From: Chitinophagales bacterium
Lineage (GTDB): Bacteria > Bacteroidota > Bacteroidia > Chitinophagales > CAVYQA01
Reading direction: 5' to 3'
Assembly (NCBI GenBank): GCA_963770495.1
Contig: CAVYQA010000015.1
Coordinates: forward strand, 43,914 to 107,913
DNA length: 64,000 nucleotides
The notes under the pieces were generated by a model, which saw only the letters and a program-made list of their open reading frames with translations, searched no databases and had not been told where the DNA came from. Position 1 is the stretch's first letter; every line of letters starts with the position of its first letter. Below, piece after piece: positions 11,837 to 41,542 of the stretch. The translations under genes were made by a program, and so were the position numbers.

Positions 11837-14800
11837 ATGTTAAAATCACTACGCTTTTTTGCTGTTAGTCTATTGTTACTTGCGGCAAATGCTTTGCAAG
11901 CCCAAAATGTAGGCATAGGAACAGCCGCACCTGCCCAGAAATTGGAAATAGCGGGAACCAATAATACAATACGTATTAATGGACTTAAAACAGGGGGCAA
12001 TTATAATGGAACAGCCGCAACATCCTCCAACATTTTGTACGTAAATAATACAACAGGAGATGTGTATGCATTGCCGTCAGGCGGAGTTGGAGCGATACTT
12101 ACTATAAACGCTTCGGGTATTCCCACCTGGTCAACCGGAGCTACTTCGGCAACTGCCTGGCAGTTAACGGGTAATACAGGAATTGCTACTCCTGCTGCTC
12201 CGGCAACTTATGGAACATCAACCATTACTTCAGGTAAAAACTGGCTGGGCACTACGGATGGAAATGATGTAGTGTTTGGCACCGATAACATTGAACGGAT
12301 GCGTATAGGCGGCGGAACAGTAGCAACTGCCGGCGATGTAGGTATAGGCACATCTGCACCCGCTACAACATTACACGTTGTACAAATTGGTAATCACACC
12401 AGTGATTTCGGTACCTATAATGTAGCGGTTCAGATTGAAAATAAATCAGGTACAGAGCCGATACTTTATATCAATGGTTCAACAGCCAATAATCCTTTAG
12501 CCGGTATTATAGAACGTGCAAGTTCAACAGCATTTTATTCAGGGTTGAATAATAGTGCAAATTATAGAATAGCAGGTATAGCATCCATCACTTCGGGTGC
12601 CGTAACCACTGCTAAAGACGGTACTGCCGGTATAACCGTATTAGAATCCAATGGCAATGTGGGTCTTAATTATACAACACCTGCAAATGCATTAGATATA
12701 AGCGGTGCAGAAGCTATAGGTAGTTATGCCGGAACAGCCGCTCCTTCTAACGGATTAATTGTTTCGGGCAATGTCGGTATAGGCACCTCTTCACTATCAT
12801 CGGGTAGCACATTAAACGTGGTTCAAAATGGTAATGTAGCCAGTGATTTTGGCGGCTATAATACAGCGGTTGAGATTCAAAATACAGCAGGTACAGAACC
12901 TGTCCTTTATATCAATGGTTCAACAGCTAATAATCCCTTAGCAGGTATTGTGCAACGTGGCAGCTCAACAGCGTTTTATGAAGGGTTGAATAATAATGCA
13001 AATTTTAGAATAGCAGGAATAACAGCAATCTCTCAAACTGGTTTCGGCAATGCTAAAGACGGCAGTGCAGGAATAACAGTATTAGAATCCAATGGCAATG
13101 TAGGTATTGGAATAATAGCACCTGCCCAGGCACTGCAGGTTGTAGGTAGTGTTCAGTTTTCACAGGCATTAATGCCTAATGGGGCTGCCGGTACAGCGGG
13201 CAATGTTCTGCTATCAGGTGGAGCCGGTACATTCCCAACATGGCTTGCTAATGGCAGCGCCAATCAAGTTCTTACCATTAGTGGCGGCGTTCCCACATGG
13301 GTGACACCAACTGCTACATCAGCCACTGCATGGCAGTTAACAGGTAATGCAATTGCCTATACTTTTAGCGCCTCGCCTACAAACTATTTGGGTACTACCG
13401 CTTCAAACGGTGCAGGTTTTCAATTTGGAGTTGGCGGTGCTAATGCCGGTCGTGTAGAATCCACAAACGGAAATACTGCTTTAGGTTATCAGACTTTAAA
13501 TGCTACCACCGGCACTTATAACGTTGCTATGGGTTATCAAACTTCAAATAGTACTATAACAGGACAGTATAACACAGCGTTAGGGTATCAATCATATTTG
13601 GGACCGGGAACTACTTCGGGATCGTATAATATAGCGATTGGTTACCAGGCGCTCAATACGACAGTGTGGGGTACAAATGTCAATACAGCGTCTAATAATA
13701 TTGCTATTGGAAACCAATCATTAACAAGTATAACTACGTCACATGATGAAATAGGTATAGGAAATAGTGCCGGCGCTGCTATTATAACCGGTACTCAGAA
13801 TATAGCAATTGGCTATGCCGCAATGTATAATACCGGTGGAGGTGATAATAACAATACTGCTATTGGGTATTTAGCCTTAGAAGGGTTCGGAGCAAATGTA
13901 AATGACAATACAGCCATTGGCACTAATGCCTTACAGAATGGAGCATCAAGCGACAACGTAGCTATAGGATATAATTCTATGGAAGAAAACTTTCTTACCA
14001 GTGTAGGTTTTAATGTCGCTGTTGGTTCCGGAACACTTCAAGTAGGAAACACTGTTTCTAACTCTACGGCTATCGGGTATTATTCATTACATACTGCTAC
14101 CGCAGGTAACAATACCGCTGTCGGATATTCTTCATTATCCTCTAACCTGAGCGGCTCCAGTAACGTAGCTATGGGGTATGATGTTCTTTTATCAAACACT
14201 TCTGGCAGTAATAATACGGCATTAGGTTACCAGGCGGGTTACACGGCAACACCTGCTAACGCAAATGTCACAGGCAGTAATAATACTTTTATTGGTTATA
14301 ATGCAGGTCCCGGAACAGCCACACAGTTATCCAATGCGACAGCTCTTGGTAACGGCGCATTAGCTCCTATTAGCAATTCAATAACTCTAGGTAACTCTGC
14401 GGCTACAAGTCTTTATATACCGGGTTATCAAACAGCAGGCGCATTATTATATACCACAGCTGCAACCGGGCTTGTTGGATCGACCGGTGTTGGTACAAGC
14501 GGGCAGGTATTAGAATCAACAGGCGGAGGCGCTCCGACATGGACAACCTTAACTACATCAGCAACTGCATGGCAGCTAACAGGTAACGAGCGGAGTAACT
14601 TATGCAGCTAATTTTATAGGTACGGTAAGCGGCACTGACCAGGCACTTAAGTTTGAAGTAAACGGTTCAACAGCAGGGCGAATTGAGGATATAAATACAG
14701 GTAATAATGCTTACGGCAATACTTCATTAGGTTACCTGGCATTAAGTGTGCCGTCTACAGGATTCTCAAATGTAGCAATAGGTAAAGAAGCTCTTCGTAA

Positions 14801-17800
14801 CAATGCGGCTGACTATAATGTGGCAGTTGGCGATAGTGCGTTGGTTAGTAATACTACAGGTACCTATAACATAGGAATAGGAAATAATGCATTAGCAACA
14901 AACATATCAGGTTTATTGAATACTGCTGTCGGATATTATGCATTAAATGCCAATAACAGCGGTAGTTACAATACAGCACTCGGAAATAGTGCATTATTGG
15001 GGAATACTTCAGGTGGCGACAATGTTGCAGTAGGGTCGTTTGCATTATATTCAAACCAAACAGGTACTGCCAATGTCGCCATTGGATATGAAGCTTTGGA
15101 AGCCAGCACATCAACCAACCCCAGTACTGCCGTCGGTTATTTTGCTTTAGGTCATAATACAACAGGTGGTCTCAATACAGCGGTAGGATACGATGCTTTA
15201 GGTGTAGGAAACACAACAGGTGTTGACGATGATGCTTTCGGTTATTTTACGGGGGCAAGGAATAATGGCAACTATAATGTGGCGCTTGGCGATGCGGCTC
15301 TCCGCACTCCTACAGGCACTTCAAGTAACAACGTTGCTGTTGGGTACAGTGCCTTAACCGCTTCAAATGCAAGTGTTGGTAATAACACAGCCATAGGATA
15401 CGAATCTAGTTACAGCACTACAACCGGTTCAAACAATACAGCATTAGGCTACCAGTCATTATATACTAATGCCGCTTCCGCCTCAAACGTTGCAATAGGA
15501 GCTAATGCATTATATAATAATACCGTCAGCAAGAATACAGCAGTGGGCGATAGTGCACTTGCTTACAATTCAACCGGCACACTTAACACAGCTTTAGGTT
15601 ATAATGCCACTGTATCGGCAAATAATTTATCCAATGCAACAGCAATCGGCGCGAATGCAATAGCTCCTGTAAGCAACTCAGTAACATTAGGTAATTCGGC
15701 AGTTGCAAGCCTTTATTTGCCGGGATATACTTCAGCGGGTGCATTATTATATACTTCCGCTGCAAGCGGGCTTGTTCAATCAACAGGTGTTGGTACAAGC
15801 GGGCAGGTATTACAGTCAAATGGTACAGGCGTTCCCACATGGGTAACACCTGCTGCGGCATCGGCTACAGCTTGGGCTTTAACAGGTAATACAGGAACAA
15901 CTTACGGTACTAACTATATTGGCACTAATGATCTTCAAGGTTTAATGTTTAAAGTTGACGGCACAATAGCCGGGCGTATTGAAGAGTTAAAAGCCAGTCA
16001 GAATCTCAATGCCAATACGGCAATTGGTGATTCAGCATTAATATCCAACACCACAGGTGGATGGAATACAGCAGTAGGTTACCAGGCTTTAGGTGACAAT
16101 ACCCAGGGATACTATAATACAGGAATAGGATGGGGAGCAAATGCTTTAAACACAACGGGTTCTTCCAATACTGCAGTTGGACTCGACGCTTTATATTCAA
16201 ACAACACAGGCGGATACAATACAGCCCTTGGGTATGCTAGTATGGGGTTAAATACCACTGGTAATAACAATATTGCTATTGGAGCTTGGGCATTGGATGA
16301 TAACACCACAGGTTCTGGCAACATTGCCATTGGGTATGAAGCTTTGGTGGCAAACACCACAACTAATCCCAGTACTGCCATTGGTTACTTTGCTATAGGG
16401 CACAACACTACTGGCGGTCCCAATACCGCATTAGGTTATGAAGCTTTAGATCTGAATGTTACAGGTACTAACGAGGATGCTTTTGGTTACCTGGCAGGTT
16501 TTAGGAATACCGGCAGCTTTAATGTTGCGCTTGGAGATATGACTCTACGCACTCCTTCAGGCACTTCAAGTAACAACGTTGCTGTTGGTTACAGTGCTTT
16601 AACCGCTTCAAATGCCAGTGTTGGTAACAACACAGCCATAGGTTACGAATCCGGTTATACCACTTCAACCGGTTCAAACAATACCGCCTTAGGCTACCTG
16701 TCGTTATATACTAATACTATTCACGCCTCAAATGTAGCAATAGGAGCAAATGCGCTTTTAGATAACAACGTCAGTCAAAATACAGCAGTGGGTGATAGCG
16801 CTTTAGCAACTAACGTTAGCGGCACTGGTAATACAGCGTTGGGTTATCAGGCAGGAGCTGTTACAACCGGTTCTTTTAACCAATTTGAAGGGTACCAGGC
16901 GGGAAGTAATAATTCAACCGGCGCTAACAATACTTTTATCGGGTATAGCACAGGCACTACAAATACTACAGGCTCCAATAATACACTTTTGGGCAGTGCC
17001 GCCAACATAAATGCAGCCGGGTTAACTAATGCAACAGCAATAGGAGCAGGTGCTACAGCTCTTGCAACCAACTCAATAACGTTGGGCAATTCGGCAGTTT
17101 CAAACCTTTATTTGCCCGGATATCCTACTGTTGGAGAAATGTTCTATACCTCCAATGGAAACGGGCTTGTTTCACCTCTTAATATAGGGACAACCGGACA
17201 AGTATTGACAGTATCAGGCGGTGTTCCCACATGGGTAACACCCACTGCAACATCAGCTACTGCATGGCAGCTAACAGGTAATGCTGTTGCCTATTCTTTT
17301 AGTGCTACACCTGCTACCTATTTGGGTACTACCTCCGGAAACGGTGCGGGTTTTCAATTTGGAGTTGGCGGCAATAACGCCGGGCGTGTTGAATCCACTA
17401 ACGCAAATGCTGCATTGGGTTATCAGACATTAAATGCAAATATTACAGGTACCGGTAATGCAGCAATCGGTTATCAGGCATTACTTGCCAATACGACAGG
17501 CACGAACAATGTTTCTATGGGTTACCAGGCATTAAAAACAAGCACAACAGCTGCGTCAAATGTGGCAGTAGGTAAATTTGCGTTAGAACTTTCAACAGTT
17601 AGTCAAAACGTGGCAATAGGCGATAGCGCATTATCACTTAATACGTCAGGAGTTCGCAATACCGCAGTAGGTTACCAGGCGGGAACAAATAATACAACAG
17701 GTACTGATAACGTATCAATAGGGTGGGAAGCAGGTTATTATCCTGGTTCAACCAGTAATAACACAGCAATAGATAATATTGGTATCGGAACTTATGCAAT

Positions 17801-20800
17801 GTCAGGTTATGGTGGTTCATTCATTGGCACACCCGGTTCTCATAATATAGGTATTGGTGAAGAAGCAACGGATGATCTCTCAACAGGTAGTAATAACATT
17901 GGTATTGGTTATGAGTCTTTATTACTTGAAGCCACCGGAAGTTATAATATTGCTCTTGGAATTGGAGTAATGCTTCAGGATCAATCTTCCAGCAATAATA
18001 TAGGTATAGGTTATAACGTATTAGAGCAGGGTGGCGGTGGAGGAAATAACATTGCCATTGGAAACAACAGCATGGCACTTAACCTTAGTGGTAGTAATAG
18101 CGTGGCGATTGGTACAAATGCAATACAAAATGGAAATGGCTCTCTGGCTAACACTGCAGTAGGTTATCAGGCTTTACAAAATAATGGCAGTAACTGGGCA
18201 CCGGGGGCTGATGGTGATTATAATGTAGCTGTAGGTTATGACGCATTATTGAATGCACATGGAGCAGCTCAAAACGTTGCTGTTGGTTATAACGCTGCTA
18301 TAAATACAAATAGCTTTACAGTTAATGGCAGTGCTGTGAATAACGTTGCAATTGGTTATAATGCTTTTAGCACTAATACTACTGGTAGCAATAACGTAGC
18401 AATTGGTTCCAATGCCAATGTAGCTTCTGCTGCGTTAACCAATGCAACAGTAATAGGCTACAATGCCACAGCGCCTGTAAGCAATTCAGTAACTTTGGGT
18501 AGTTCAGCAGCTACGAGTTTATATATACCAGGATATAATACGGCAGGTGCTTTATTATACACTTCAGCAGGAACCGGGTTGGTAGCATCAACGGGAGTTG
18601 GCACAAGCGGACAGGTATTAGAATCAACAGGTGGAGGCGCTCCAACATGGACAACCCTAACAACATCAGCTACTGCATGGCAATTAACAGGTAATTCAGG
18701 AACAACACCCGGTACTAATTTTATAGGCACTACCGATGCCAAAGCGCTTGAATTTAAAGTGGATGGAAAACAAGCAGGGTGGATTGACTATAACGGTAAC
18801 GAGAATACCTATTTTGGCTACCAGGCAGGTAATTTATCCGCCAGCGGCGGCAATGTCGCTATCGGATACGATGCGCTTCTCAGCTCCGGCGGAACTTCAA
18901 ATATCGGCATCGGAAATTCGACTCTTATTTTTAACACCAGCGGCAGCAACAATATCGCTATCGGCGGCGGTGTGCTTAATAACAACTCCTCCGGGTCTCA
19001 AAATGTGGGCGTCGGAGCAGGTACACTCTTTAATACCGGCAGCGGCTCTTACAATACCGCTGTTGGAGGTAATGCACTTAATGGCAGCGGCGGATCGTAC
19101 AACACCGCCCTTGGATTCAATGCCATGTCGCAGAACGGACCAAGTTTTAGCACTGCTATTGGAAATGAAGCAGGAGCCAATAACTCCGGTAACCAGAATG
19201 TGTTTGTAGGCGACAGTGCAGGGTATAATAATATTAATGCATCAGGAATAACCTTTGTGGGGTTTGCAGCAGGAACAAACAACTCGAGTGGAACAAATAA
19301 CACTGCCCTTGGGTATAATACTCTTAACACTAATTCAAGCGGAAGTAACATTACCGCTTTAGGTTATGGCGCCAACGTAAGTTCAGACGGCTTAACCAAT
19401 GCAACGATAATAGGCGCTAATGCAACAGCGATTGCAAGTAACTCAATAACATTAGGTAATTCTGCAGCTACAAGCCTTTATATACCCGGTTACCAAACAG
19501 CGGGTGCATTATTATATACTTCAGCTGCAACCGGACTGGTTGCATCGACTACAGCCGGTACAAGCGGGCAGGTATTAGAATCAACCGGCGGCGGTGCACC
19601 AACATGGACAACCCTAACCACATCAGCCACTGCATGGCAGCTCACCGGCAACGCGGTTGCCTATAGCCCTAGTGCTTCACCTACTAACTATTTGGGTACA
19701 ACTATTTCCGGTGGTACTGGTTTTCAATTTGGAGTTAGCGGCAGTAATGCTGGCCGAATTGAGGGTGGCGCTACTCTTAATACCGCACTGGGTTATTTGT
19801 CATTAAATCCCAGCACCACAGGCACTAAAAATTCGGCTTTAGGAGCCAGGTCCTTAAATGCTAATACCACCGGTTCTGAAAACTCGGCTGTTGGTAATGG
19901 TTCATTAACTTCCAACACTTCCGGCAGCAACAATTCGGCTTTAGGATTTGCCGCTTTGGCTGATAATACTTCGGGATCTTCTAATACAGGCATAGGTGTT
20001 GATGCGTTAAACAATAATACCTTGGGCGGTAACAATGCAGCTTTAGGATATGAGGCGTTAACCGCTAACACCACCGGCAATAATAATGTTGCAGTTGGTG
20101 TTCAGGCAATGTATAGCAATACCACCGGCGCCAGTAACGTAGCTGTTGGACAAAATGCCTTATATTCCGATATCGTTCCTTCTTCTAACGGCAGTCAAAA
20201 TACAGCCATTGGTACTTATTCATTATATGGTGCCATAAGCGGTGCTGCACGGAATACAGCTGTCGGAGATTCAGCTTTGGTCAGTAACACGACCGGCGCA
20301 CAAAATACGGCTTTAGGTTACAATGCCAATGTAAGTTCAGGCGCTTTAACCAATGCCACAGCTATAGGCGCAAATGCATCTGTTGCACAAAGCAACTCTT
20401 TAATTTTGGGTTCAATAAACGGAGTAAACGGTGCGACAGCCAATACCAGTGTCGGTATTGGTACAAATACACCTAACAGCACTCTGCATGTCAATGGCTC
20501 AATGTCTGTTGCTGTAACTAATATTACTCCCGCTCTATCTCCTTATTCAGCAGGTTCGGGTGATTATATTGTTGAAGGCGATTGCAGCACCGGCAATATT
20601 ACAATAAATCTTCCCGATGCCACTACTATGAAGGGCAGGATATATTATATCGTCCGTTACGATGCAACCTTTAATTCGGCTAATACACTTACTGTAGGTA
20701 CTACAAATAACACCTCCAGTCAGAATAATATTGGTCCCTATGGCGCGTCTATCTCACTTTCTGACGAATATGAACAGGAGTATATTGCAAGTGACGGAAA

Positions 20801-20837
20801 TAACTGGCTTATTCTTGGCAGCAGTAAAATGCAATAA
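11837..20837 (+). CDS. Giant (about 2,999 aa) secreted beta-roll / tail-fibre-like repeat protein 1
   Basis: Track ORFs 11837-14611 and 14748-20837 join into one frame when one base at 14588 is removed (TGN-SGVTYAANFIGT, as in the sister repeat TGNSGTTPGTNFIGT). Sec signal then QNVGIGT; dozens of about 14-aa NxAxGxxAL repeats; seven AW(Q/A)LTGN linkers; C-terminal TINLPDA...GRIYYI...SDGNNW domain. Confidence 0.85.
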
Positions 20838-20845
20838 TAATGGAG

Positions 20846-20885
20846 CAGTAACCCGGTTTGTTTAAAGAACCGGGCTACTGTTTTA
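20846..20885 (+). terminator. Intrinsic terminator after giant gene 1
   Basis: CAGTAACCCGGTT / AACCGGGCTACTG stem (one mismatch) followed by a T-run. Confidence 0.8.
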
Positions 20886-21129
20886 AAGCTTTATATACCA
20901 CTTCGACATTAGAATTTTAATATTTTGCATGCAATACCATGCCCTGTATTTAAAATTACTTAATTATCAGTTCTATTTTTTTAGCAAACTTTATTGGAGA
21001 TAAATTGTAAATAATTACCTGATTGTAACAAATTTTATCTGCTATAAGCTCATTCATTAGCTTGCAAGAATCATATAAAAAAATAGGTGCAAAATGACCA
21101 AAGTCATATTTTGGTTTATACAACACCTC

Positions 21130-21137
21130 TAATTTTG
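21130..21137 (+). promoter_or_regulatory. -7 box upstream of tnaA
   Basis: TAATTTTG, 80 nt upstream of the tnaA ATG. Confidence 0.55.
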
Positions 21138-21158
21138 CCGACAAAAATTTAGATAATT

Positions 21159-21227
21159 ATGGCGAAAGCAAGGAAAAGGTTATGGGCAGTTTTAAAAAAC
21201 GCAGATAGAATTATTTATGGAATTTAA
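21159..21227 (+). other. Possible Trp-containing leader peptide overlapping the tnaA start
   Basis: ATG 21159 gives [22 protein letters not shown], downstream of the -7 box and overlapping the tnaA ATG by 11 nt. Confidence 0.3.
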
Positions 21228-22597
21228 AACTATAATAGAGCCATTTCGCATTAAGTCTGTTGAGCCATTGCAGATGAGTACGGAGGAACAACGAATAAAG
21301 TTTTTATCAGATGCTCATTACAATCCGTTTCTTCTAAAAAGCGAAGAGGTGATTATTGATTTGCTTACCGACAGACGGCACATCAGCCATGAGTACTAAC
21401 CAGTGGGCTGCTATGATGCAAGGTGATGAATCTTATGCAGGCGCCAAAAGCTGGAAACGGTTTGAAAAGGCGGTTTATGAATTTACCGGTATGCCTTATA
21501 TATTACCTACCCACCAGGGACGTGCGGCAGAGCGCATTCTTTACAGTCACCTGGGCGGGAAAGGGAAATATTTTATAAGTAATACCCATTTCGATACAAC
21601 ACGGGCGAATATTGAATACAGCGGGGCAACAGCCATTGATATACCGGTAAGCGCTGCATACGATTTTTCATCCGATTACCCGTTTAAAGGCGACCTCGAT
21701 GTCATTCAACTCGAGCAACTTATTAAAAAATTGGATGCCAAAAATATTGCCGGTGTCATTCTCACGGTTACCAACAACAGTGGCGGGGGGCAACCTGCAA
21801 GTATGCGCAATGCCCGCGAAGTTGCCGCCATGTGCAAACTGCATGGTATTCGATTTATAATTGATGCGTGTCGTATTGCGGAGAATGGCTATTTTATTCA
21901 TTTGCGTGAAGAGGGCTATGTCGATAAAACCATTAAGCAAATTGTGTTTGAGATGTTTTCACTGGCTGATGCCTGTATTATGAGCGCCAAGAAAGATGCG
22001 TTGGTTAATATGGGTGGCTTTTTGGCGTTGCGCGATAAAAAAACAGCCGATGCCTGCATTCAACTCTTAATTATAACAGAAGGGTATACAACCTATGGAG
22101 GTCTTTCTGGTCGTGATATGGAAGCCATTGCTGTGGGATTAAGTGAAGGACAGGACATGGATTATTTACATTATCGTATAAAAAGTACACAATATCTTGG
22201 TGAAAATATAAGACGCAAAGGGATTCCCATTATTTACCCGGTGGGTGGTCACGCTGTTTATGTAGATGCCAAAGCTCTTTATCCGCACATACCTGTCGAG
22301 CAATATCCCGGGCAGGCTTTGGTTTGCGAATTATATCGCATTGGCGGAATACGATGTGTGGAGATTGGTTCGGTAATGTTCGGCAAATATGATGGTAATG
22401 GAAAACTCATTCCGGCGCCGATGGAATTGGTACGGCTGGCTATCCCCCGCCGCACCTACACCCAAAGCCATATAGATTACGTGGTCGAGGTTTTTGACGA
22501 GATAATTAAAACCAAACATAATACAACAGGGCTGCGGATTATCCGGGAACCTGAATTCCTTCGTCATTTTACAGCACATTTTGAGAAAAATGTTTAG
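21217..22597 (+). CDS. tnaA: Tryptophanase (one apparent +1 indel at 21375)
   Basis: EPFRIKSVE start; removing A21375 restores DLLTDSGTSAMS; THQGRAAE; PLP lysine in SAKKD. FDTT and LRHFTA residues match tryptophanase rather than tyrosine phenol-lyase (FTTT, LRFFTA). 459 aa when joined. Confidence 0.9.
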
Positions 22598-22614
22598 TAA
22601 AAAGATAGGACTAA

Positions 22615-24204
22615 TTAATTTTTAGAAATGGCAAAGAGACTATTCGTATTTCTTGGATAGTCAATATTATAATTAAGTCCGCGGCTTTCATGGCGTGAAA
22701 GGCTATCCTCAATGATAAGAATCGCTACCGTAATAAGATTACGGAGTTCACACAATTTTGAATAAATATCATTTTCTGTGTATAATTCTTCAACATCCTT
22801 TTCAATCAACTTCATTTTATCCAACGCGAGGTTCAATCGTTTATTACTTCTTACAATACCAATATAATCATTCATTATAGTTTGTACTTCCGATCTGTAT
22901 TGATCGAGTAATGTATCTTCTATCGGTGTTGAATCCCGTTTTGTTTTCCATTCCGGAAGATTTTTGCCAATACTATATGAATAAATATTGGCTGACGCGT
23001 GCTGAAAACTCCGATGGGCAAATACCATCGCTTCAAGTAATGAGTTTGAGGCAAGGCGATTCGCGCCATGAAGCCCTGTACAGGCACATTCGCCGCAACT
23101 ATAAAGTTGTTTAATTGAAGTTCTGCCATGTTCATCCGTAGCGATACCGCCGCACAAATAATGAGCCGCAGGTGCAATGGGTATCATATCAGTCATAATG
23201 TCTATACCAAGAGAAAGGCATTTATCATATATATGAGGAAAGTGTTCAATAAATTTTTTCTTATCAAGATGCCGGCAATCCAATAAAACAAAATTGTCTC
23301 CTCTTTTTTTCATTTCACTGTCAATTGCACGTGCAACAATATCGCGAGGGGCTAATGACAAGCGCGAATCATAATTATGCATGAATTCGTTCCCGTCAAT
23401 GGTTTTCAATATGGCTCCGAATCCGCGTACTGCTTCGGAAATCAGAAATGACGGGCTTTCGGGCGGGTTATAAAGCGCAGTAGGATGAAACTGGATAAAC
23501 GCCATATTATTTATTTTCGCTTGTGCCCGCCATGACATGGCAATACCATCACCTGTGGCAATAAGGGGATTGGTGGTAATTTTATAAACCTGCCCCACTC
23601 CACCGGTTGCAAGAAGGGTTGCCTTACCAAGAATTACCTCTACTTTATTAGTATTAATATTCAAAGCGTATACGCCAAAACAGGTAGTTTCATTTTTAGA
23701 TAATTTAGTATCATCCGAATGATGGTTTGTGATAAGATCAATCGCGAAATAATGAGTGAACAGTTCAATGTTGGGATGATTTTTTATTTGTTTCAGAAGC
23801 GCCCGTTCTATCTCTAACCCTGTAATATCTTTATGATGTAAAATTCTATGGGCGCTGTGCCCACCTTCGCGCGCGAGGTCGAATTCACCCGATGTAGTTT
23901 TATCGAAACTGGTTCCCCACTCAATCAGGTCAATAATCCGTCGCGGTCCCTCATTAACCACGATTTCAACGATTTTCTTATTGCATAAACCATCGCCCGC
24001 AATAATGGTATCCCTGATATGCTTTTCATACGAATCCTTTAATAAATCCGTCACGGCAGACACACCGCCTTGTGCGTATTTTGTGTTCGACTCATCCTTA
24101 TCGCCTTTAGTTAATATGATAACCTTTCCGCTTTCTGCGGCTTTAAGTGCGAAATAAAGTCCGCCAATACCACTTCCAATTACAAGATAATCGGCTCTTT
24201 TCAT
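22615..24204 (-). CDS. nadB: L-aspartate oxidase
   Basis: GSGIGG FAD motif, SNTKYAQGGV, REGGHS, QFHPT, LISEAVRG, GLHGANRLASNSLLE, HESRG; next to nadA. Confidence 0.96.
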   Translation of the reverse strand: MKRADYLVIGSGIGGLYFALKAAESGKVIILTKGDKDESNTKYAQGGVSAVTDLLKDSYEKHIRDTIIAGDGLCNKKIVEIVVNEGPRRIIDLIEWGTSFDKTTSGEFDLAREGGHSAHRILHHKDITGLEIERALLKQIKNHPNIELFTHYFAIDLITNHHSDDTKLSKNETTCFGVYALNINTNKVEVILGKATLLATGGVGQVYKITTNPLIATGDGIAMSWRAQAKINNMAFIQFHPTALYNPPESPSFLISEAVRGFGAILKTIDGNEFMHNYDSRLSLAPRDIVARAIDSEMKKRGDNFVLLDCRHLDKKKFIEHFPHIYDKCLSLGIDIMTDMIPIAPAAHYLCGGIATDEHGRTSIKQLYSCGECACTGLHGANRLASNSLLEAMVFAHRSFQHASANIYSYSIGKNLPEWKTKRDSTPIEDTLLDQYRSEVQTIMNDYIGIVRSNKRLNLALDKMKLIEKDVEELYTENDIYSKLCELRNLITVAILIIEDSLSRHESRGLNYNIDYPRNTNSLFAISKN

Positions 24205-24254
24205 TCGTATAAAAATTGAGTAAAATTAACTAATTAAGGAAAATACTTTTGTGT

Positions 24255-28712: not shown

Positions 28713-28740
28713 AGTTTCAGGTTAAATGTTTTGTAATGAT

Positions 28741-30530: not shown

Positions 30531-30699
30531 TGGGATTGCTCATTTTGCTGGAAGCACCTAATATCTCGATGCCAACAATAGAGCATTTGTTTTCTAAATA
30601 TCACTTAATCTATTAATGTTTTTTGCAGACGGGATAAACCAGAACTTTCTGTGTCAAGAGAAAATTGGTTGATTCTCTCCATAGTTATAATCTTTGATC

Positions 30700-30876
30700 T
30701 TACTTCTTTCCCTGCAATTGTCGACCATTTAAAGCATCAGCTTTTGCCGCTTTATGCTGACTGATTTTGCTTTCAGCAAATGAAGGGCTGAGCCAATAGT
30801 CAGCAACCGATGAATTCAATTCAATGGCTTTTAATTTTATGCAACCCAATAATTTTTCCTTATCATATCTTTCCCA
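30700..30876 (-). pseudogene. Degenerate TPR-protein fragment
   Basis: Manual translation KAIELNSSVADYWLSPSFAESKISQHKAAKADALNGRQLQGKK*, a TPR-like helix pair with no start codon. Confidence 0.45.
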
Positions 30877-31038
30877 AGGGATGTATATATTTTCTTTTAC
30901 ATAGAATTATTGTCCATTATTCAATTGTAAGTTCATTAAGCTGTGATTTAACATCCGCTTAACGTTAACTTCATTTTCCGCACCACTTATTTAATAATTA
31001 TTTCATTTGATATTAACTCCGCTGTAATAGTGTCTGTC

Positions 31039-31046
31039 TATTTTCG
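31039..31046 (+). promoter_or_regulatory. Possible -7 box variant for giant fibre gene 2
   Basis: TATTTTCG (one mismatch to TAnnTTTG), about 145 nt upstream of ATG 31192. Confidence 0.35.
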
Positions 31047-31191
31047 CCCCCGCGTTTTACCACCATTTGTCACAAAAAAGACCAATATTTTATACAATTT
31101 AATGATACATGCAGGTTCATATGTTAGTAAATACTATTGTGAATTTTGTGTGTATTTATAGACACATTTTTAAAAAATTAAAAACCAAAAT

Positions 31192-34100
31192 ATGAAAAAT
31201 TTCTATCGCTTACTTATCGTTGTAGCAACTATTACACTAACTTACCTTAGTGTTAATGCTCAAAACGTTGGTATTGGCACTGCTGCACCTGCCCAAAAAT
31301 TAGAAATAGCGGGAACCGCCAATACAATAAGAATAAACGGGCTTAAATCCGGAGGAAATTTTAATACGGCGGCAACATCAAACTCTAATATTCTATATGT
31401 AAATAATGCTACCGGCGATGTATATTCATTACCGTCAGGTGGCATAGGAGCAATTCTTTATATAAATGCTACCGGCGTACCCACCTGGGCAAATACCAAT
31501 ACCATAGCATGGACATTGACAGGCAACGACGGCACGACGGCAGGGACCAACTTTATAGGAACCACGGATGCTACAGATTTAGAATTTAAAACAGGGGTAG
31601 GCGGAGTACTTAGAATGACCATAGGGGGCACCGCACTTGATGGGGGCTATATGGCAATCAATACAGGAATCGTGAATGGTCAGCAATTAACGGTAGCCAC
31701 CCCAAGCTCTTTAGCCAGCAATACCGCAATAGGAATAGAAGGCATAAACACAATACCCACCACAGTGAACACCAGTGGCTACGGGGTAGCAGGCGAAAGC
31801 GGAAGCAATGCAGGCGTGCCGGTCAATGTATCCCTGACGGGCGGTCCGGTATTGAATTTAACAGCAGGCGTGTTTGGCAGTGCGGCAAGAGGACCAGCCG
31901 TACCCACCACCACAGGCTTAACCAGTAACGTAGGCTTTGGTGTGATAGGGATGTTAGGCAGCGCGATGCCCAGCAGTGCGCCGTTCCTGTCCGGAGCAGG
32001 CGTATTGGGAGCCACCAAGACAGGAGGCACAGCGCCCTTTGCAGCCGGCGTTGCAGCGTATTCCAGCGGTGGTGGTTATGGAGTATACTCCAGTGTAACG
32101 GGAGGCGGTATCGGATATTATACAGCAGTAACCGGAGGCAGTAATACCATAGTGCCGGGAGCAGGTAATTTCGGGGTTTATATACTGGGCAATCATAGCA
32201 CCACATCCGGTGTGTATTCGTATATGGGCAGTAAGGGGGTAGCCACCTTGCCCACGGTAGCCTCAGGCGTGTATGCCACCACCGACTCCACCTTAGGACA
32301 GGTATGGGCGCTGGCAGCTAACAATACAAAATCCACCACAGCGCCAACGGGCAACGGCTTATTGGTGTTCGGAACAACAGATGAAGTAGGCACAGTAACC
32401 TTAGGACAAAATACAACAACATATATGACAGGCGGCGTAGCCGCCAATGGTCAATTGGTGTTTGATAATGCCAGCAATGCCTTTACCGCAACCATCAATG
32501 CCAACCCGTCAGCGACGGCAAGCTATAGTTTGGTATTACCCCCGGCACAAGCCACATCAGCCGGACAAGTGTTAACCAATGACGGAGCAGGCAATTTATC
32601 GTGGGCGACAGCAGGCACAGGAGGAGGCGCGATATTATCCAATGGAACAGGCATCAGCGCCTTTAGTTATAATGGCTCAACAGCAACCACAGTAGGCATA
32701 GCTCCCACGGGAATAACACGGGCACGTACGGTTCAGATACGACCGTGCCTGTATATAATGTAAATGCAGAAGGACAGATCACCTCCGTAACAACAGTACG
32801 GATATCATCAGGAGCATTGACGGGCACAGCAGGGGGAGATTTAACAGGCTCGTACCCTGATCCGACCATAGCCAATCTCCAGGGAATACCGGTAACAGCC
32901 TCAGGAGTCAATGCACCGGCCAATGGACAGGTGCTGGAATACAACGGAACCGACTGGATACCCGGTAACCCGAGCGGCTCAGGCACAGTAACTAGCGTTG
33001 GTTTAGCTTTACCTGTAAGCGTATTTAATGTCACCGGCTCACCTGTAACCGGAGTGGGAACACTGACGGGAACCTTAGCCAACCAGAATGCGAACCTGGT
33101 ATTTCCGGGACCTACATCAGGGGCAGCAGGGAGCGCCGACCTTCAGGGCATTGGTAGCAGCGGATTTGCCGTCACTGGCGGGTAATTATATCCAGAACCA
33201 GGGCAGTGCAGCACAGACAGCCAATTTTTATATTACGGGCAATGCGAGCATAGGAACAGCGCCGGTAACCAACCAGCAATTAACAGTAGCTACTCCAAGT
33301 TCTACACTCACAAATTCGGCAATAGGAGTAGAGGGCATAAACAGTATCCCCACCACAATCAACACCAGCGGCTACGGTGTAGTAGGTGAAAGCGGAAGCA
33401 GTGCAGGAGCGCCGGTCAATGTATCTATCACCAACGGACCGCAGTTAAATGTAACAGCGGGCGTGTTGGGCAGTGCGGCAAGAGGCCCTGCAGTACCCAC
33501 CACCACAGGCTTTACCAGTAATGTCGGCTTTGGCGTAGTAGGATTATTAGGCAGCGCCTTACCCAGCAGCACACCGTTCATCTCGGGAGCGGGCGTATTA
33601 GGAGCCACCAAAACAGGCGGTACGGCGCCCTTCGCGGCAGCAGTGGCAGCGTATACCAGCGGCGGTGGTTATGGCTTGTTTACCAATGTAACAGGCGGGG
33701 GATATGGTTTATATGATAATACAACAGGGGGAGGTTATGGCATATACCAAAGCGGCACAGGCGGCGCCTTTGGGTTATATGCATCAGAAACAGGCTCAGC
33801 GGCATTAACAGCGGTAACCAACTCGGTACCACTTGGTACAGGAAATATTGGTGTATTCGTAAATGGTAACTCCAGTTCACTGGCGGGTGTGTATTCCTAT
33901 ATGGGAAGTAAAGGTTATGTAACCGCACCGACCACGGCATCAGCAGTCTATGCGGTGACCGACTCAACAACATCAAGAGTATGGGCGATGACCAGCGAAT
34001 AATACTAAGTCCACTACAGCCCCAACCGGCAACGGGTTATTGGTGTTCGGAACCACCGATGAAGTAGGCACAGTAACCTTAGGACAAAATACAACAACCT

Positions 34101-37100
34101 ATATGACAGGCGGCGTAACCGCCAACGGACAATTGGTATTTGACAATGCCAGCAATGCCTTTACAACAACTATTAATGCCAACCCTGCAGCCACGGCAAG
34201 TTACAATTTGGTACTACCGCCTGCACAGGCAACAGCAGGACAGGTATTGACCAATGACGGAGCGGGTAACTTATACTGGTCCTCAGCCGGAGGCGGAGGA
34301 GGAGCAGCCTTAACCAATGGGACAGGGATCAATACGTTAAATTATAATGGTTCAACAGCAGCCACGGTATCAATAGCCAATACAAGTGTAACACCGGGCA
34401 CGTACGGAGATGGTACAGACGTAGCGCAATTTACCGTTAATCAGCAGGGACAATTAACCTTTGCGGGCACCGTACCCATCACAGGAGGAGTATTAATAGG
34501 TACAGACGGGAGGCGATCTGATGGGGAGTTATCCCAACCCGACGATAGCCTCGATACAGGGATTTCCGGTAACAGCCTCAGGCGCCAATGCCCCCCTAAC
34601 AGGACAAGTATTGGAGTATAACGGAACCGACTGGGTACCGGGCAGTACAAGCGGAACAGGCACAGTAACGAGCGTGGGTCTGGCACTACCGGCAAGCGTG
34701 TTTAATGTAGCAGGCTCGCCTGTAACCGGGGTGGGAACACTGACAGGCTCATTTGCGAACCAGACTGCGAACACCGTGTTTGCAGGACCGGCATCAGGAG
34801 GAGCAGGAGCGCCGACCTTCAGAGCATTGGTAGCAGCCGATCTGCCATCGCTGGCGGGTAATTATATCCAGAATCAAAGCGCAGCATCACAAACAGCGAA
34901 TTTTTGGATAAGCGGCCCGGCAGGCATAGGAGTAGCCACAGCGCCGACGACCACACAGTTATCAGTATTGACCTCCACATCAGGTAATATAGGCATACTG
35001 GGGAACAACAACGTGCCCACCACCACGAGCACCAGCGGCTATGGCGTAGTAGGAGAAAGCGGAAGCAGTACGGGAGCACCAACCAATGTAACCATCACCA
35101 GCGGTCCGGTATTGAATATAACAGCGGGCGTGTTAGGCAGTGCGTCAAGAGGACCGGCAGTGCCCACCACCTCGGGCTTTACCAGTAACGTAGGCTTTGG
35201 CGTAGTAGGCTTATTAGGTAGCGCCTTACCCAGCAGTACACCGTTCATCTCAGGAGCCGGCGTGTTGGGTGCTACCAAGACAGCAGGCACAGCGCCATTC
35301 GCAGCAGGCGTGGCAGCGTATGCCAGCGGCGGCGGTTATGGCGTGTATTCCAGTTCAACGGGAGGCGGCATCGGCATTTATACGGCAGTGACGGGGAAAA
35401 CCAGTACAGTAATACCCGGAGCCGGCAACTTTGGAGTATATGTATTAGGCAATGAGAATACGAGTTCAGGTGTGTATTCACGCATGGGAACAACCTACGG
35501 AGTAGCGCCGCTACCCACGGTAGCCGCATCGATATATGCGACAACAGACTCCACGCTCAAAGTATGGGCACTGGCAGCTAACAATACCAGCAGCACCACG
35601 GCGCCAACCGGCAACGGGTTATTGGTGTTCGGAACCACCGATGAAGTAGGCACAGTAACCTTAGGACAAAATACAACGACGTATATGACAGGCGGCGTAA
35701 CGGCCAACGGTCAGTTGGTATTTGATAATGCAATAAATGCCTTTACGGCAACCATCAATGCCAACCCGTCAGCCACGGCAAGTTACAGTTTGGTACTGCC
35801 ACCTGCGCAAGGTGCAGCAAGCACTGTGTTAACCAATGACGGAGCAGGCAACCTGTCATGGGCAGCAGCAGGAAGTGGAGCATCACTAACCAATGGAACA
35901 GGAATAACTGCATTCACCTATAATGGCAGTGCAGCGGCAACAGTTTCACTAGCCAATACAGCAGTAGTAGCAGGCAGCTATGGTGATGCCAATGATTTTA
36001 CCACCTTTACCGTAAATGCACAGGGACAATTAACGTCAGCAGGCACATTCCCACTGCCAACCTCACTGCCACCCTCAGGAGCAGCAGGCGGGGATTTGAC
36101 AGGTGCCTATCCCAACCCGACAATAAATGACATTCAGGGCATCGGTGTATTAGCATCAGGAGCCAATGCGCCGGTTAGCGGGGATGTGTTGGAATATAAT
36201 GGTACCAATTGGGTACCGGCCACACCGGCAGCCACAGGAGTAACCTCAGTAAGTGCAACAGGACCATTGAGCGTGACCAATCCGACCACCACTCCCAATA
36301 TTTTATTAAGCGGAACAGCGGGCACTATATTATATGGAACAGGAGCTAGTTCAGCCTTTACGTCAGCAGGCACAGCAGGACAGTTATTACAATCCAACGG
36401 AGCGGGAGTTCCAACATGGTCAAGCCCCAATGCAATAGCATGGACATTAACAGGCAATAGCGGCACCACAGCGGGCACCAACTTTATAGGAACAACGGAT
36501 GCGACAGATTTAGAATTTAAAACAGGAGTAGGCGGAGTACTTAGAATGACAATAGGCGGCACCGCAACAGATGGGGGTCTTGTAGGAATAAATATATTGC
36601 CGCAGACGGGGCAGCAATTAACGGTAGCGACGCCAAATACGGCTAACACAGGTATAGCAGGCGTGAACAGCGTGACCACCAGCACGAGTACCAGCGGGTA
36701 TGGCGTAGTAGGCGAAAGCGGCACGGGAGCCGGAGCACCCTATACAGTATCCATCACCAGCGGGTCCGCAATTAAACGTAACCGCAGGCGTGTTAGGCAG
36801 TGCGTCAAGAGGCCTGCGGTGCCCACCACATCAGGCTTTACCAGTAACGTAGGCTTTGGTGTGATCGGGTTATTAGGCAGCGCTATGCCAAGCAGCGTGC
36901 CTTTTTTATCGGGAGCAGGCGTATTGGGCATCACCAAAACAGGCGGCACAGCGCCCTTTGCAGCCGGCGTTGCAGCCTATTCTAGCGGCGGCGGTTACGG
37001 GGTGTATTCAAGTACCACCGGAGGCGGCATCGGCTTTTATACAGCAGTAACCGGGGGCGGTAATACGATAGTACCCGGAGCAGGTAATTTCGGGGTGTAT

Positions 37101-40100
37101 GTATTAGGAAATCATAGCACCACATCCGGTGTGTATTCGTATATGGGCAGTAAAGGAGTAGCCACCTTACCCACGGTAGCCTCAGGCGTATATGCCACCA
37201 CGGACTCCACCTTAGGACAGGTTTGGGCGCTGGCGGCTAACAATACAAAATCCACCACGGCGCCAACTGGCAACGGTTTATTGGTGTTCGGAACCACCGA
37301 TGAAGTAGGCACAGTGACCTTAGGACAAAATACAACGACCTATATGACAGGCGGCGTAGCAGCCAATGGACAGTTGGTGTTTGATAATGCCAGCAACGCG
37401 TTCACGGCAACCATCAACGCCAACCCGGCAGCCACGGCAAGTTATAGTTTAGTATTACCTCCTGCACAAGCCACAGCTTCGGGACAGGTGTTAACCAATG
37501 ACGGCGCAGGGAATTTATCCTGGGCGACAGCAGGCACAGGAGGAGGCGCCATCTTATCTAATGGAACAGGCATCAGCGCCTTTAGTTATGATGGCTCAAC
37601 GGCAGCCACAGTAGGCATAGCCAGTACAGGAGTAACGGCAGGGACTTATGGATCAGATACGACAGTGCCTGTATATAATGTAAATGCACAGGGACAGATT
37701 ACTTCGGTGACGAATGTGAGAATATCATCAGGCGCGTTGACCGGCACAGCAGGAGGAGATTTGACCGGCAGTTACCCGGATCCGACCATAGCCAATCTCC
37801 AGGGTATACCGGTAACCGCTTCGGGAGCCAGTGCACCCCTGACAGGCCAGGTATTCCGGAATATGACGGAACCGAGTGGGTGCCCGGCAGCACAAGCGGA
37901 GCAGGCACGGTAACCAGTGTAGGACTGGCATTGCCGGCAAGTGTATTTAATGTCACGGGCTCACCTGTAACCGGTGTGGGAACACTGACAGGAGCGTTTG
38001 CGAACCAGAATGCGAACACCGTGTTTGCAGGACCATCTTCAGGAGCAGCAGGAGCACCAACCTTCAGGGCATTGGTAGCAGTGGATCTGCCATCCTTAGC
38101 GGGTAATTATATCCAGAATCAAAATGCAGCAGTCCAGACGGGGACATTCCTGATAAGCGGGACAGCAGGCATCGGGGTAGCCGCAGCGCCGGCGAGTTCG
38201 CAATTATCAGTATTGACCTTCACATCAGGATATTCAGGTATACTGGGAAACAACAACGTGGCAACAACAACGAGTACCAGCGGATATGGCGTAGTAGGAG
38301 AAAGCGGAACAGGAGCAGGAGCGCCGACCAATGTATCTATCACCAGCGGTCCGGTATTGAATATAACACGGGCGTGTTAGGCAGTGCCTCAAGAGGACCG
38401 GCAGTACCCACTACCTCAGGCTTTACCAGTAACGTAGGCTTTGGAGTAATAGGCTTATTAGGCAGCGCCTTACCCAGCAGCACACCATTTATCTCTGGAG
38501 CGGGCGTATTGGGAGCCACCAAGACAGGCGGCACAGCGCCATTTGCAGCCGGTGTGGCAGCATATTCCAGCGGCGGCGGCTATGGCGTATATACCAATGT
38601 AACAGGCGGCGGGTATGGAATCTATGATAATACGACTGGCGGTGGTTATGGCATATACCAAAGCGCCACAGGTGGCGCCTTTGGGTTATATGCAGCAGAA
38701 ACAGGTTCAGCAGCGCTGACATCGGTAACCAATTCGGTACCACTTGGCACCGGCAACATCGGCGTATTCGTAAATGGTAATTCCAGTTCATTGGCGGGTG
38801 TGTATTCGTATATGGGAAGTAAAGGCTATGTAACAGCGCCGACCACGGCATCAGCAGTCTATGCGGTGACCGACTCAACAACATCAAGAGTATGGGCGAT
38901 AACAGCGAATAATACTAAGTCCACTACAGCCCCAACCGGCAACGGGTTATTGGTGTTCGGAACCACCGATGAAGTAGGCACAGTAACCTTAGGACAAAAT
39001 ACAACGACGTATATGACAGGCGGCGTAACGGCCAACGGTCAGTTGGTATTTGATAATGCAATAAATGCCTTTACGGCAACCATCAATGCCAACCCTGCAG
39101 CCACGGCAAGTTACAGTTTGGTACTGCCACCTGCGCAAGGCGCAGCAAGCACTGTGTTAACCAATGACGGAGCAGGCAACCTGTCATGGGCATCAGCAGG
39201 AAGTGGAGCATCACTAACCAATGGAACAGGAATAACTGCATTCACCTATAATGGCAGCGCGGCGGCAACAGTTTCACTAGCCAATACAGCAGTAGTAGCA
39301 GGCAGCTATGGTGATGCCAATGATTTTACCACCTTTACCGTAAATGCGCAGGGACAATTAACGTCAGCAGGCACATTCCCATTGCCAACCTCACTGCCAC
39401 CCTCAGGAGCAGCAGGCGGGGATTTGACAGGTACTTATCCCAACCCGACGCTAAATGAGATACAGGGCATCGGGGTATTAGCATCAGGAGCCAATGCGCC
39501 GACAACAGGGCAGGTATTGGAATACAATGGTACCAATTGGGTACCAACTACACTTGCAGCCACAGGAGTAACCTCAGTAAGTGCAACAGGACCATTGAGT
39601 GTGACCAATCCGACCACCACTCCCAATATTTTATTAAGTGGTGCTAATGGAGGTGTTCTTTACGGCACAGGCACAGGTGTAGGATCGGCATTCTCAGCTA
39701 CAGGCACTTCAGGGCAGTTATTACAGTCAAATGGAGCAGCTGCCCCCACATGGGTGGATGCATCTTCAGTGATAGCTACTGCTTGGAATATAAATGGTAA
39801 TTCAGGTACAAACTCTTCTATTAATTTTATTGGTACAACAGATGCACAGGATTTAGTGTTTAAAGCTGATGGTTATGAAGACATGAGAATAGCCAACAGT
39901 ACCGGTTATGTGGGTATTGGAACGAGTGCAGTAAACCCGCCGACACAACCGTTATTTGTTACAGAAACAGCCAATAATAATAAATACGTAATAACGGGAA
40001 ATGCTATACAGACGTCATTAGCAATAGATTATCAGAATACGGCTATTTACGGTTTTGCTGCAGGCGGTGATGATAATTTCGGATATGCAATCGGTGTAAT

Positions 40101-41542
40101 GGGAATAATTCATCCGACATCACACGGAGGTACAGCTTTATATGGTGGAATTAATACAAGTGCTCCCACCTTCACCCCGGCTAGTAACACATATTATGGT
40201 ATCTATACAGATGCCAGCAACACCAATATTGGCGTTGGTTATGCAGCTGCATTTATGAATGGGAATGTAGGTATAGGAACAGCTACGCCTGCTCAAACAT
40301 TGGAAATAGGAGGAACAGCCGCAACAATTAGAGTGGACGGAATGATAAGCGGTAATTCATTTAATGCTTCTTCGGAGTCATCCAACTCAAATGTTGTATT
40401 TGCTAATAACAGCACAGGTGATTTGTCTGCGTTACAAAATGGAACCAATGGACAAGTATTAACTATTACAGGCGGTGTTCCAACATGGACTGCACCGGCT
40501 ACCAATGGTACAGTAACTTCAGTTGGATTAAGCGTACCGGCTTCAAGTATTTTTGGAGTTAACGGTAGCCCTGTTACCGGTTCGGGCACGATTGGAATAA
40601 CCACCACGGGAACTTCAGGAGGTATTCCTTATTTCAGTTCAGCTTCTGCTATATCTTCTTCAGGAGCTTTAACTCAATATGGTATTGTACTTGGCGGTGG
40701 TGCAGGTGGAGCACCTACCACAACAGCAGCACTTACAGACGGACAGGTATTAGTAGGCTCAACAGGTGGATCGCCCGTTGCCGATACTATAGGCCCTGAA
40801 TCTAATTCAGGAATAACTGTAATAAACGGTTCTGGAAGCATTACAATTGGAACGAATGGCGTGTTAAATGACATAGTTACATTTACAACTGCAGGGTCAG
40901 GATCTTATTTACCTTCAGCCGGTACTAAAGCAATACAGGTTGAATTGATTGGCGGCGGTGGTGGTGGAGGTTCATGTTCAGAACCTGCAAGCAATGGTTC
41001 TGCCGGTGGTGGTGGTGGTTCTGGTGGTTATGTTAAGGTATACTTCACTAGTCCGTTATCCGGAAGTTATAATCTCTTTGTAGGTTCAGGTGGAGCCGGA
41101 GCAGCAGGTAGCAATTCAGGTAATGGTAGTTCCAGCCCCGGTAGCAGCGGCACAAGTACTTGGTTTGGTACCAGCTCTACATATGTTGCAGGCGGCGGTA
41201 GTGGAGGTAATTATGGCAGCGCTAATTTACCAAGCGCTGGTGGAGGTGGTGGTACAGCTTCAGGTGGTACAGTAAATATGCAGGGTAGTCCCGGTAGTTT
41301 AGGTTTCGGAGGTTCAAGCGGTTCATCCTCTGGTGGAGGTGGTTCTTCGGTACTTGGTGGAGGTGGAACGCCTGCTTATAATACAACAGCTGCATCTACA
41401 ATTGCCGGTAATAATGGAGGCACTAACAGCTGGTGCAGGTGGTAGTGGTGCTGCTAACTTGGGTAGTCCTTCAGGAACGCCAAAAGTAGGAGCTGGTGGC
41501 AATGGAGCTAATGGAATAATAATTATTACAGAGTATAAGTAG
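31192..41542 (+). CDS. Giant (about 3,450 aa) secreted Gly/Thr/Ser-rich tail-fibre-like repeat protein 2
   Basis: Eight track ORFs join into one frame using sister repeats as templates (indels near 32718, 33128, 33993, 34506, 37853, 38369 and 41426, plus a compensated pair at 36764/36812). Signal peptide + QNVGIGT; phage-fibre-type motifs GGDLTGxYPxP, TSVGLALP and APTFRALVAADLP; Gly-rich C-terminal domain ending GANGIIIITEYK. Confidence 0.82.
31500..39640 (+). repeat. Five intragenic tandem units of about 1.6-1.7 kb
   Basis: The VFGTTDEVGTVTLGQNTTTYMTGGV...VLTNDGAGNL core starts at 32365, 34043, 35625, 37284 and 38953, with long near-identical DNA stretches. Confidence 0.95.

Follow-up and report, generated by a model that had tools for sequence, protein, structure and literature searches.

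Two giant genes on a contig of a Chitinophagales bacterium (assembly GCA_963770495.1, contig CAVYQA010000015.1) encode proteins that have in common a conserved module directly after the signal peptide and then diverge in body and tip. The stretch analysed (64,000 nucleotides, contig positions 43,914 to 107,913; hereafter the window, in whose numbering positions are given) was examined together with the rest of the genome. The two loci, gene 1 (11837-20837, + strand) and gene 2 (31192-41542, + strand), are probably members of a lineage-specific, expanded family of Sec-exported mosaic fibres resembling phage tail fibres. The family comprises at least 14 loci and 51 open reading frame (ORF) pieces with ~58,000 codons (~174 kb), which is ~4% of the 4.05 Mb genome, and its longest member is one uninterrupted gene of 4,266 aa. 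At least 12 family genes open with a signal peptide and the module, which is 76-91 residues long, and the C-terminal tips are of no fewer than three unrelated types (A, B and C), and one further paralog carries S74. Together with the mosaic similarity among paralogs, these counts bear out the modular fibre family with swappable shafts and tips that a preliminary description of the window, made from its sequence alone, had proposed.

A Conserved Module at the N-Terminus

The N-terminal modules of gene 1 (11903-12130) and gene 2 (31261-31488) are identical at 62 of 76 residues, and the BLASTP comparison of the two N-termini gives E = 8e-52, a likeness far beyond what chance would produce; the preliminary description had singled out this likeness. 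The signal peptides that precede them are mutually unrelated. In DNA, the module is 76% identical between gene 1 and gene 2. Identity falls to ~50%, the level of unrelated sequences, in the region upstream, in the signal peptide and over the 670 bases that follow the module. The module codons of the two genes differ by 30 synonymous and 14 non-synonymous changes. Among five paralogs (gene 1, gene 2, C12, C2 and C30) the N-terminal copies are 82-92% identical, whereas internal copies reach 35-60%. Because the module is a conserved island with an excess of synonymous changes and unalignable flanks, these comparisons indicate that the N-terminal copies form a distinct class under purifying selection and are not the product of recent gene conversion.

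The module had been described as a feature of two genes, and this proved too narrow. A tblastn search found 37 copies in the genome, and a profile built from 24 copies gave 74 matches genome-wide, most of them internal. When 1.84 billion representative proteins were scanned, 2,023 clusters contained the module, sometimes at residues ~20-105 and often deep inside the protein, and many of these proteins had 10-30 partial stretches. Within the genome the module recurs internally ~20 times or more and opens internal fibre units, as anticipated by the caveat in the preliminary description that it might be a structural element. Judged by these positions, the module is not in itself an N-terminal signal. 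The diverged third copy reported inside gene 2 could be placed at 40264-40491, with 38 of 76 residues identical. This copy is 69-72% identical to internal copies of other paralogs vs 54-57% to the N-terminal copy of its own gene; by this measure the module classes do not simply sort by gene. Short stand-alone homologs in other Bacteroidota (P0002, P0116, P0117 and P0162) each consist of a signal peptide, a module, a shaft and a tip, and the C-terminus of P0162 resembles, by eye, the S74 chaperone. The giant fibres look like end-to-end chains of units that exist elsewhere as short proteins.

It could be argued from this distribution that the module is a mere structural joint, a start-of-unit element of a trimeric shaft with no dedicated role in assembly, retention or export. 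The mostly internal matches in the genome and in the representative clusters favour such a joint, as does the VGIGT...L.V motif, which also stands before tip A of gene 1 and, in homologs, before the S74 domain. However, a simple joint would not be expected to show the much higher identity of the N-terminal copies, nor the island of conservation with its synonymous excess between unalignable flanks, and the module stands right after the signal peptide in distant short homologs too, as in the design of the mosaic adhesive trimer (MAT) fibres of Bdellovibrio. We consider the joint unlikely on balance, though it deserves serious weight. As for the common N-terminal assembly or export module that had been postulated, the existence of a distinct, selected N-terminal class in at least 12 genes stands, while the internal recurrence speaks against that part of the proposal and no export role was seen.

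Shafts and Tips of the Two Fibre Genes

Gene 1 has ~3,000 codons when its one frame break is read through; in the given DNA it is present as two ORFs in different frames, 11837-14611 (924 aa) and 14580-20837. Its features are as follows.

11837-11902, + strand: signal peptide MLKSLRFFAVSLLLLAANALQA, cleavage before Q (between ...ALQA and Q), signal peptidase I type, by inspection of n-, h- and c-regions
11903-12130, + strand: N-terminal module of 76 aa, NVGIGT...PTW
12122, 13292, 14534, 15834, 17226, 18642 and 19599, + strand: joints PTW...AWQLTGN
20430-20834, + strand: tip A, a C-terminal beta-sandwich whose fold resembles the T4 gp10 and tailspike XD domains
20852-20884, + strand: terminator-like hairpin 3' of the gene

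The shaft of gene 1 consists of seven segments of YadA-head-like repeats with the joints in between, and its PHROG matches are to tail-spike and virion-structural families, the best at E = 1e-162; the YadA_head family itself had no Pfam match in the fibre ORF pieces. The stretch before the tip has homologs that are 50-75% identical over that stretch and are labelled by their sources as 'tail fiber domain-containing protein', 'endosialidase-like' or 'trimeric autotransporter adhesin'. Most of these homologs end in Peptidase_S74, and in gene 1 tip A holds that place.

Tip A was modelled as a monomer with AlphaFold2 (AF2; predicted local distance difference test score, pLDDT, 84; predicted template modelling score, pTM, 0.73). 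A Foldseek search of this model against the PDB returned a tailspike (1.7e-7), followed by the CBA120 TSP4 XD domains, T4 gp9 and gp10, and 327 viral models were matched in BFVD. With the fold of the C-terminal domain (CTD) of type IX secretion system (T9SS) cargo defined according to PMC11285876, no T9SS cargo or CTD entry was present among the top 50 PDB matches, which, apart from the viral gp10/XD-like domains, were non-significant unrelated folds.

Gene 2 has ~3,450 codons when its breaks are read through and contains the following features.

31192-31260, + strand: signal peptide MKNFYRLLIVVATITLTYLSVNA, cleavage before Q (between ...VNA and Q), signal peptidase I type, by inspection
31261-31488, + strand: N-terminal module of 76 residues, aligned to the gene 1 copy
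40264-40491, + strand: third module copy, internal, which opens the tip cassette (E = 8e-17)
40900-41539, + strand: tip C, a Gly-rich C-terminal domain that ends ...GIIIITEYK and contains the last frame break
41574-41598, + strand: GC-rich hairpin and T run 3' of the gene, seen in the sequence and not reported by the pattern scan

The body of gene 2 is made of Gly/Thr/Ala-rich repeat units that are 77-94% identical in DNA. It gave no match in the PHROG search, and the two bodies differ as first described. PHROG 863 was matched by the tip region (residues 532-1015 of that ORF piece). The Gly-rich family PF21722 is present in homologs of this tip, which are often found on phage-sized contigs of 33-45 kb; together with the fold matches of tip A, this upholds the view that the tips of both genes are of phage type. 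Paralog C16:9625-17037 has the same kind of C-terminal end as gene 2. The end coordinate first given for gene 2, 41542, is a true stop, followed by the hairpin. Metagenome contigs of runs X4 and X8 match gene 2 only at 36983-37000 and 40951-40970 and diverge beyond these stretches; their probable origin is Gly-rich genes of other organisms and not a rearrangement.

Both mature proteins begin with Gln at +1, in line with the Bacteroidetes Q-rule, by which Gln follows the signal peptide cleavage site (PMC5837995). Cys is absent from both signal peptides, so neither gene has a lipobox. Neither fibre gene is enriched in the Bacteroidota O-glycosylation motif D(S/T)(A/I/L/V/M/T), which occurs 7 times per ~3,000 aa in each.

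An Expanded Family with Variable Tips

The tips are distributed over the family as follows.

Tip type A: gene 1, C2, C12 (twice), C30 and one C25-like form
Tip type B: C21, C30 and C17
Tip type C, Gly-rich: gene 2 and C16

The sole Peptidase_S74 match in the genome lies at C30:219139-219366, within a fibre-related gene of 1,363 aa (C30:215848-219936); none was found in the window. The similarity among paralogs is a mosaic. C12 and C30 have 91% DNA identity just after the module and not before it, and C2 and C30 have the upstream region and the signal peptide in common. Many family paralogs are also split into pieces. Paralogous polytopic membrane proteins of ~520-560 aa, 55-66% identical to each other, are encoded at C2:354726-359917, C2:375052-376690 and C30:222407-224092, and adjoin the fibre locus on C2 and the S74-fibre locus on C30.

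In 30 genomes of the same order the module had 0-1 matches each, and no match at E <= 1e-10 was obtained in 250 phylum-sampled genomes. For NadA of this genome, the best named relatives are from Chitinophagaceae, at 64-67% identity. On these comparisons, the fibre expansion is specific to a soil Bacteroidota lineage that has no close sequenced relative. A literature search found no published description of such fibres in Bacteroidota.

Given the PHROG tail-spike and tail-fibre matches, the viral fold of tip A and the phage-sized contigs among the gene 2 tip homologs, both genes might instead encode tail fibres of a prophage, a tailocin or a contractile injection system and not cell-surface proteins. 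This is scarcely credible. Both products carry Sec signal peptides, the genes are flanked by housekeeping genes with no phage structural genes nearby, and the family occupies 14 loci with proteins of 3,000-4,266 aa. In addition, tblastn of the N-terminus and the gene 2 tip against 50,697 phage records gave no match.

Frame Breaks in the Fibre Genes

Each giant protein had been presented as one reading frame, and the breaks, one in gene 1 and nine in gene 2, had been passed over silently. These ten frame-disrupting indels lie within the 19 kb of the two genes. Gene 2 passes through eight frame segments (0>2>0>1>2>1>0>1) and has in addition a compensated out-of-frame patch. For comparison we used read-length contigs from low-abundance soil metagenomes (runs X5, X6 and X10, from two studies, P1 and P3), which match gene 2 without substitutions over most pieces.

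14586-14592, + strand: gene 1 break directly behind joint 3 (...AWQLTGN), an indel of one base in a CAGCGG-like context
32716-32720, + strand: gene 2 break 1, frame 0 to 2, one base fewer than in the paralogous repeat, outside the metagenome contigs
33128-33133, + strand: gene 2 break 2, frame 2 to 0, one extra G relative to the paralogous repeat
33985-33999, + strand: gene 2 break 3, frame 0 to 1, a change of ORF frame
34506, + strand: gene 2 break 4, frame 1 to 2, base missing in an independent metagenome contig (run X5), which restores the frame
36762-36813, + strand: compensated patch AIKRNRRRVRQCVKR in gene 2, out of frame at 36768-36813; contigs (X5, X6) have no base at 36762 and an extra C after 36812
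37840-37865, + strand: gene 2 break, frame 2 to 1, in a gap between metagenome contigs
38368-38369, + strand: gene 2 break, frame 1 to 0, extra G in a metagenome contig (run X10, a different study), which restores the frame
~41400-41425, + strand: last gene 2 break, a change of ORF frame within tip C

No metagenome contig spans the gene 1 break; paralogs read TGNSGVTYAANFIGT across this position. In gene 2 the one-base differences between contigs and assembly sit exactly at 34506, 36762, 36812 and 38368, and each of them restores the frame, so that all four covered breaks are accounted for. That four out of four contig differences coincide with frame breaks cannot be put down to chance. Where the environmental contigs have ...CAGCGG(G)..., the assembly has CAGACGGG, ACACGGG or an additional G, and the breaks at 14590 and 32718 have the same look of context, as does the split in TamB (~48660). 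The + strand of the window has 36 CAGCGG sites, 30 of which lie inside the two fibre genes; it follows that these genes suffer most of the breaks.

Housekeeping genes are affected as well. TamB (45847-50260, - strand) is split into an N-terminal AsmA/DUF748 ORF (48641-50260) and a C-terminal TamB ORF (45847-48678) that overlap by 38 bases; at their junction stands CAGACGGG, a context shared with a fibre break that the metagenome contigs lack. The methyltransferase PrmC (HemK; 53021-53933, + strand) is likewise present as two overlapping ORFs, 53021-53578 and 53457-53933, probably through another single-base assembly error.

Ten frame-disrupting indels in 19 kb of assembly, and the splitting of many paralogs, are what one would see if both genes, gene 2 above all, were decaying pseudogenes of a once-functional family. 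We regard decay as very improbable. The four covered breaks are missing from independent contigs that are otherwise identical, the breaks occur in one sequence context in which TamB is broken too, PrmC is also split, and the frames on both sides of every break stay open and consistent with the repeats. Since the contigs restore the frame, the CAGCGG context recurs and TamB and PrmC are split too, the breaks in the fibre genes are most likely context-specific errors of the assembly consensus and not decay, the genes being intact in the organism. Programmed or phase-variable frame breaks were also considered and were rejected: these are single events in non-repetitive contexts, they are absent from the environmental contigs, and TamB is broken in the same context. 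Users of this assembly are thus warned of context-specific single-base errors, which disrupt genes rich in repeats and, in the window, at least two housekeeping genes.

Export, Anchoring and Neighbouring Genes

None of the six large fibre ORF pieces had a match in Pfam (E <= 0.01) or NCBIfam (E <= 1), and sequence searches of the PDB with the ORF pieces were likewise uninformative. In particular, no CTD of type A (PF18962/TIGR04183) or type B (TIGR04131), no YadA anchor and no S74 domain (PF13884) was detected on them. This agrees with the preliminary description, which had reported neither CTD, lipobox, barrel nor S74 in either gene; a divergent T9SS type B CTD or a barrel at the C-termini, which it had named as the finding that would overturn its view, did not emerge from the hidden Markov model (HMM) searches. 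The genome as a whole has at least 150 type A CTDs (the best 150 of 303 candidates) and ~25 type B CTDs over the cut-off, and among the matches listed from the six-frame search none lies inside the two fibre genes. Several other giant ORFs of the genome (2,200-3,150 aa) end in a type B CTD. In the window, three genes with CTDs (43602-44510, 44636-45577 and 51843-52310) were confirmed among ORFs of at least 150 aa, where five had been counted before.

In an organism so rich in T9SS cargo, the fibres might themselves be exported by this system through a non-canonical signal, in the tips or elsewhere, that HMMs miss. Flavobacterium johnsoniae ChiA, which depends on T9SS and has an atypical C-terminal region, offers a precedent. 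There are also two hints closer at hand: the S74 paralog (C30:215848-219936) has a weak type-B-CTD-like match of 20 bits, below the cut-off, at its very end, and the foreign homolog P0228 has both S74 and Por_Secre_tail on record. However, no piece carries a CTD match at the thresholds used, the fold matches of tip A included no T9SS cargo, and the tips of the paralogs are of three or more unrelated kinds, which speaks against an export signal common to their C-termini. We give export through T9SS little chance. No recognised signal for passage across the outer membrane is present in these fibres.

The fibre genes are flanked by housekeeping genes. Across the 14 loci the neighbours are housekeeping genes or other T9SS cargo that have only C-terminal modules in common, and the neighbours of three foreign homologs are unrelated. 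An AsmA-like gene beside gene 1 and TamB near gene 2 were considered as partners and rejected, as neither recurs at other loci. A tRNA-Val gene (anticodon TAC) lies at 42101-42176 (- strand), ~560 bases downstream of gene 2. Further along the window, a terminase large-subunit-like gene (57629-59026) adjoins a BstXI-type restriction endonuclease (59479-60468) and an N6/N4 DNA methylase (60465-61583), with no further phage genes seen near it (57629-61583).

Discussion

The analysis leads us to propose the following picture of the fibres. Like their relatives in phages and the MAT fibres of Bdellovibrio, they would form trimers. The conserved N-terminal module would be the cell-proximal end, fixing the fibre to a common surface partner, while the variable C-terminal tips would serve as distal binding ends, and recombination would swap tips and shaft cassettes between paralogs. 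A cell-proximal retention role is our best inference for the N-terminal copy of the module and fits its place after the signal peptide in at least 12 family genes and in short homologs of other Bacteroidota; the idea of an export module is unsupported. For a trimeric shaft of beta-prism or beta-helix type, the PHROG tail-spike matches are suggestive, the models being of monomers. Also suggestive is the best PDB sequence match of the module profile, the Bdellovibrio MAT fibre Bd3182 (E = 0.007, via the motif VGxGTxxPxxxLxV).

Several observations weigh against this picture and the reading of the family on which it is built. The link to Bd3182 is weak and runs through a shaft motif, not through the ~130-aa MAT N-terminal domain, and no match was found in 11 genomes of one order (reached via a locus labelled Bdellovibrionales; 0-6 S74 domains each, and probably not B. 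bacteriovorus). The model of the module, a monomer with two beta-hairpins, is of modest confidence (pLDDT 72) and yielded no significant fold match. Since the module is also internal, its role may be purely structural. It is by analogy with the related systems that the fibres would be trimeric, displayed on the surface and oriented as proposed. A conserved neighbour or partner gene was not found at the 14 loci of this genome or in the surroundings of three foreign homologs. With respect to the frame breaks, confirmation by metagenome contigs is limited to four of the ten. A control stretch of 19.9 kb showed two indel differences between contigs and assembly, at 42351 and 51266. The second of these falls in an A5 run of an aminotransferase gene, where it is the contig and not the assembly that is out of frame; such differences thus run in both directions, and the low-depth contigs are not free of error.

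Two further possibilities go beyond the proposed picture. The N-terminal module class could be a recognition or docking element of a CTD-independent route that carries long trimeric fibres across the Bacteroidota outer membrane or fixes them to it, which we regard as doubtful. More speculatively, the gp10/XD-like tip A might dock the N-terminal modules of other fibres, as such domains do in phages, and give rise to branched assemblies.

If the proposed reading is correct, MAT-type mosaic fibres are not peculiar to Bdellovibrio, and a soil Bacteroidota lineage has expanded them far more, to ~174 kb and up to 4,266 residues per protein. This expansion would have taken place beside a very large set of T9SS cargo, yet the fibres have no T9SS sorting domain. 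The result sharpens the question, common to the work on MAT fibres, of what holds the conserved N-terminus and how the fibres reach the surface. With paralogs that keep one end constant and differ by exchangeable tips, the family also offers natural material for studying tip swapping.

Comparison with Known Systems

The window fibres are a MAT-like variant and not a new category, the closest known kind being the MAT fibres of Bdellovibrio bacteriovorus described by Caulton et al. 2024 (PMC10769870). This precedent, like the frame breaks, was missed in the preliminary description, whose modular picture nevertheless holds. Strain HD100 has 21 MAT paralogs, 13 of them with S74 and 8 with other tips; surface display was shown, and the N-terminal domain, which has no structural homologue, 'would presumably tightly bind a surface element', its partner and the export route being still to be identified (PMC10769870). 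As in the MAT system, there is a multi-paralog family of phage-tail-fibre-like proteins with Sec signal peptides. In at least 12 genes the signal peptide is followed by a conserved element of 76-91 aa, which would correspond in position to the conserved beta-rich domain of the MAT fibres. Long shafts, variable tips on a common scaffold, S74 and non-S74 subgroups and the apparent swapping of tips between paralogs are also common to both. On the other hand, the present family occurs in a different, T9SS-rich phylum, and the proteins are three to four times longer, with several concatenated fibre units. The N-terminal element is ~76-91 aa here and re-used internally, whereas the MAT domain is ~130 aa, and the two are likened by architecture only. 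This genome has only one S74 member, and genes alone are known here, while MAT fibres have been seen on the surface.

Other likenesses are more partial. The Bacteroidota and Acidobacteriota 'tail fiber domain-containing proteins' (Peptidase_S74/PF13884, with PF26696, 'PTL_trimer', a family recorded for P0003, P0009-P0012 and further homologs) share with the window genes a signal peptide, repeats like those of the YadA head and, ahead of the C-terminal domain, the NVGIGT..P...LHV motif, but the window genes lack the S74 chaperone, end in other tips and are much longer. Like the YadA-family trimeric autotransporter adhesins, a label that some homologs carry in their source records, the fibres have head-like NTAxGxxAL repeats; they have no YadA_anchor barrel, and the conserved end is N-terminal here and C-terminal in the YadA family. 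The modelled fold of tip A resembles that of the XD domains of T4 gp10 and CBA120 TSP4, which in the phages are N-terminal or internal docking platforms, whereas tip A forms the extreme C-terminus of a secreted bacterial protein. Finally, the SprB-like giant T9SS adhesins are giant repetitive proteins of the same phylum, several of which in this genome carry a type B CTD, while the fibre family has neither a type A nor a type B CTD and its repeat types are unrelated.

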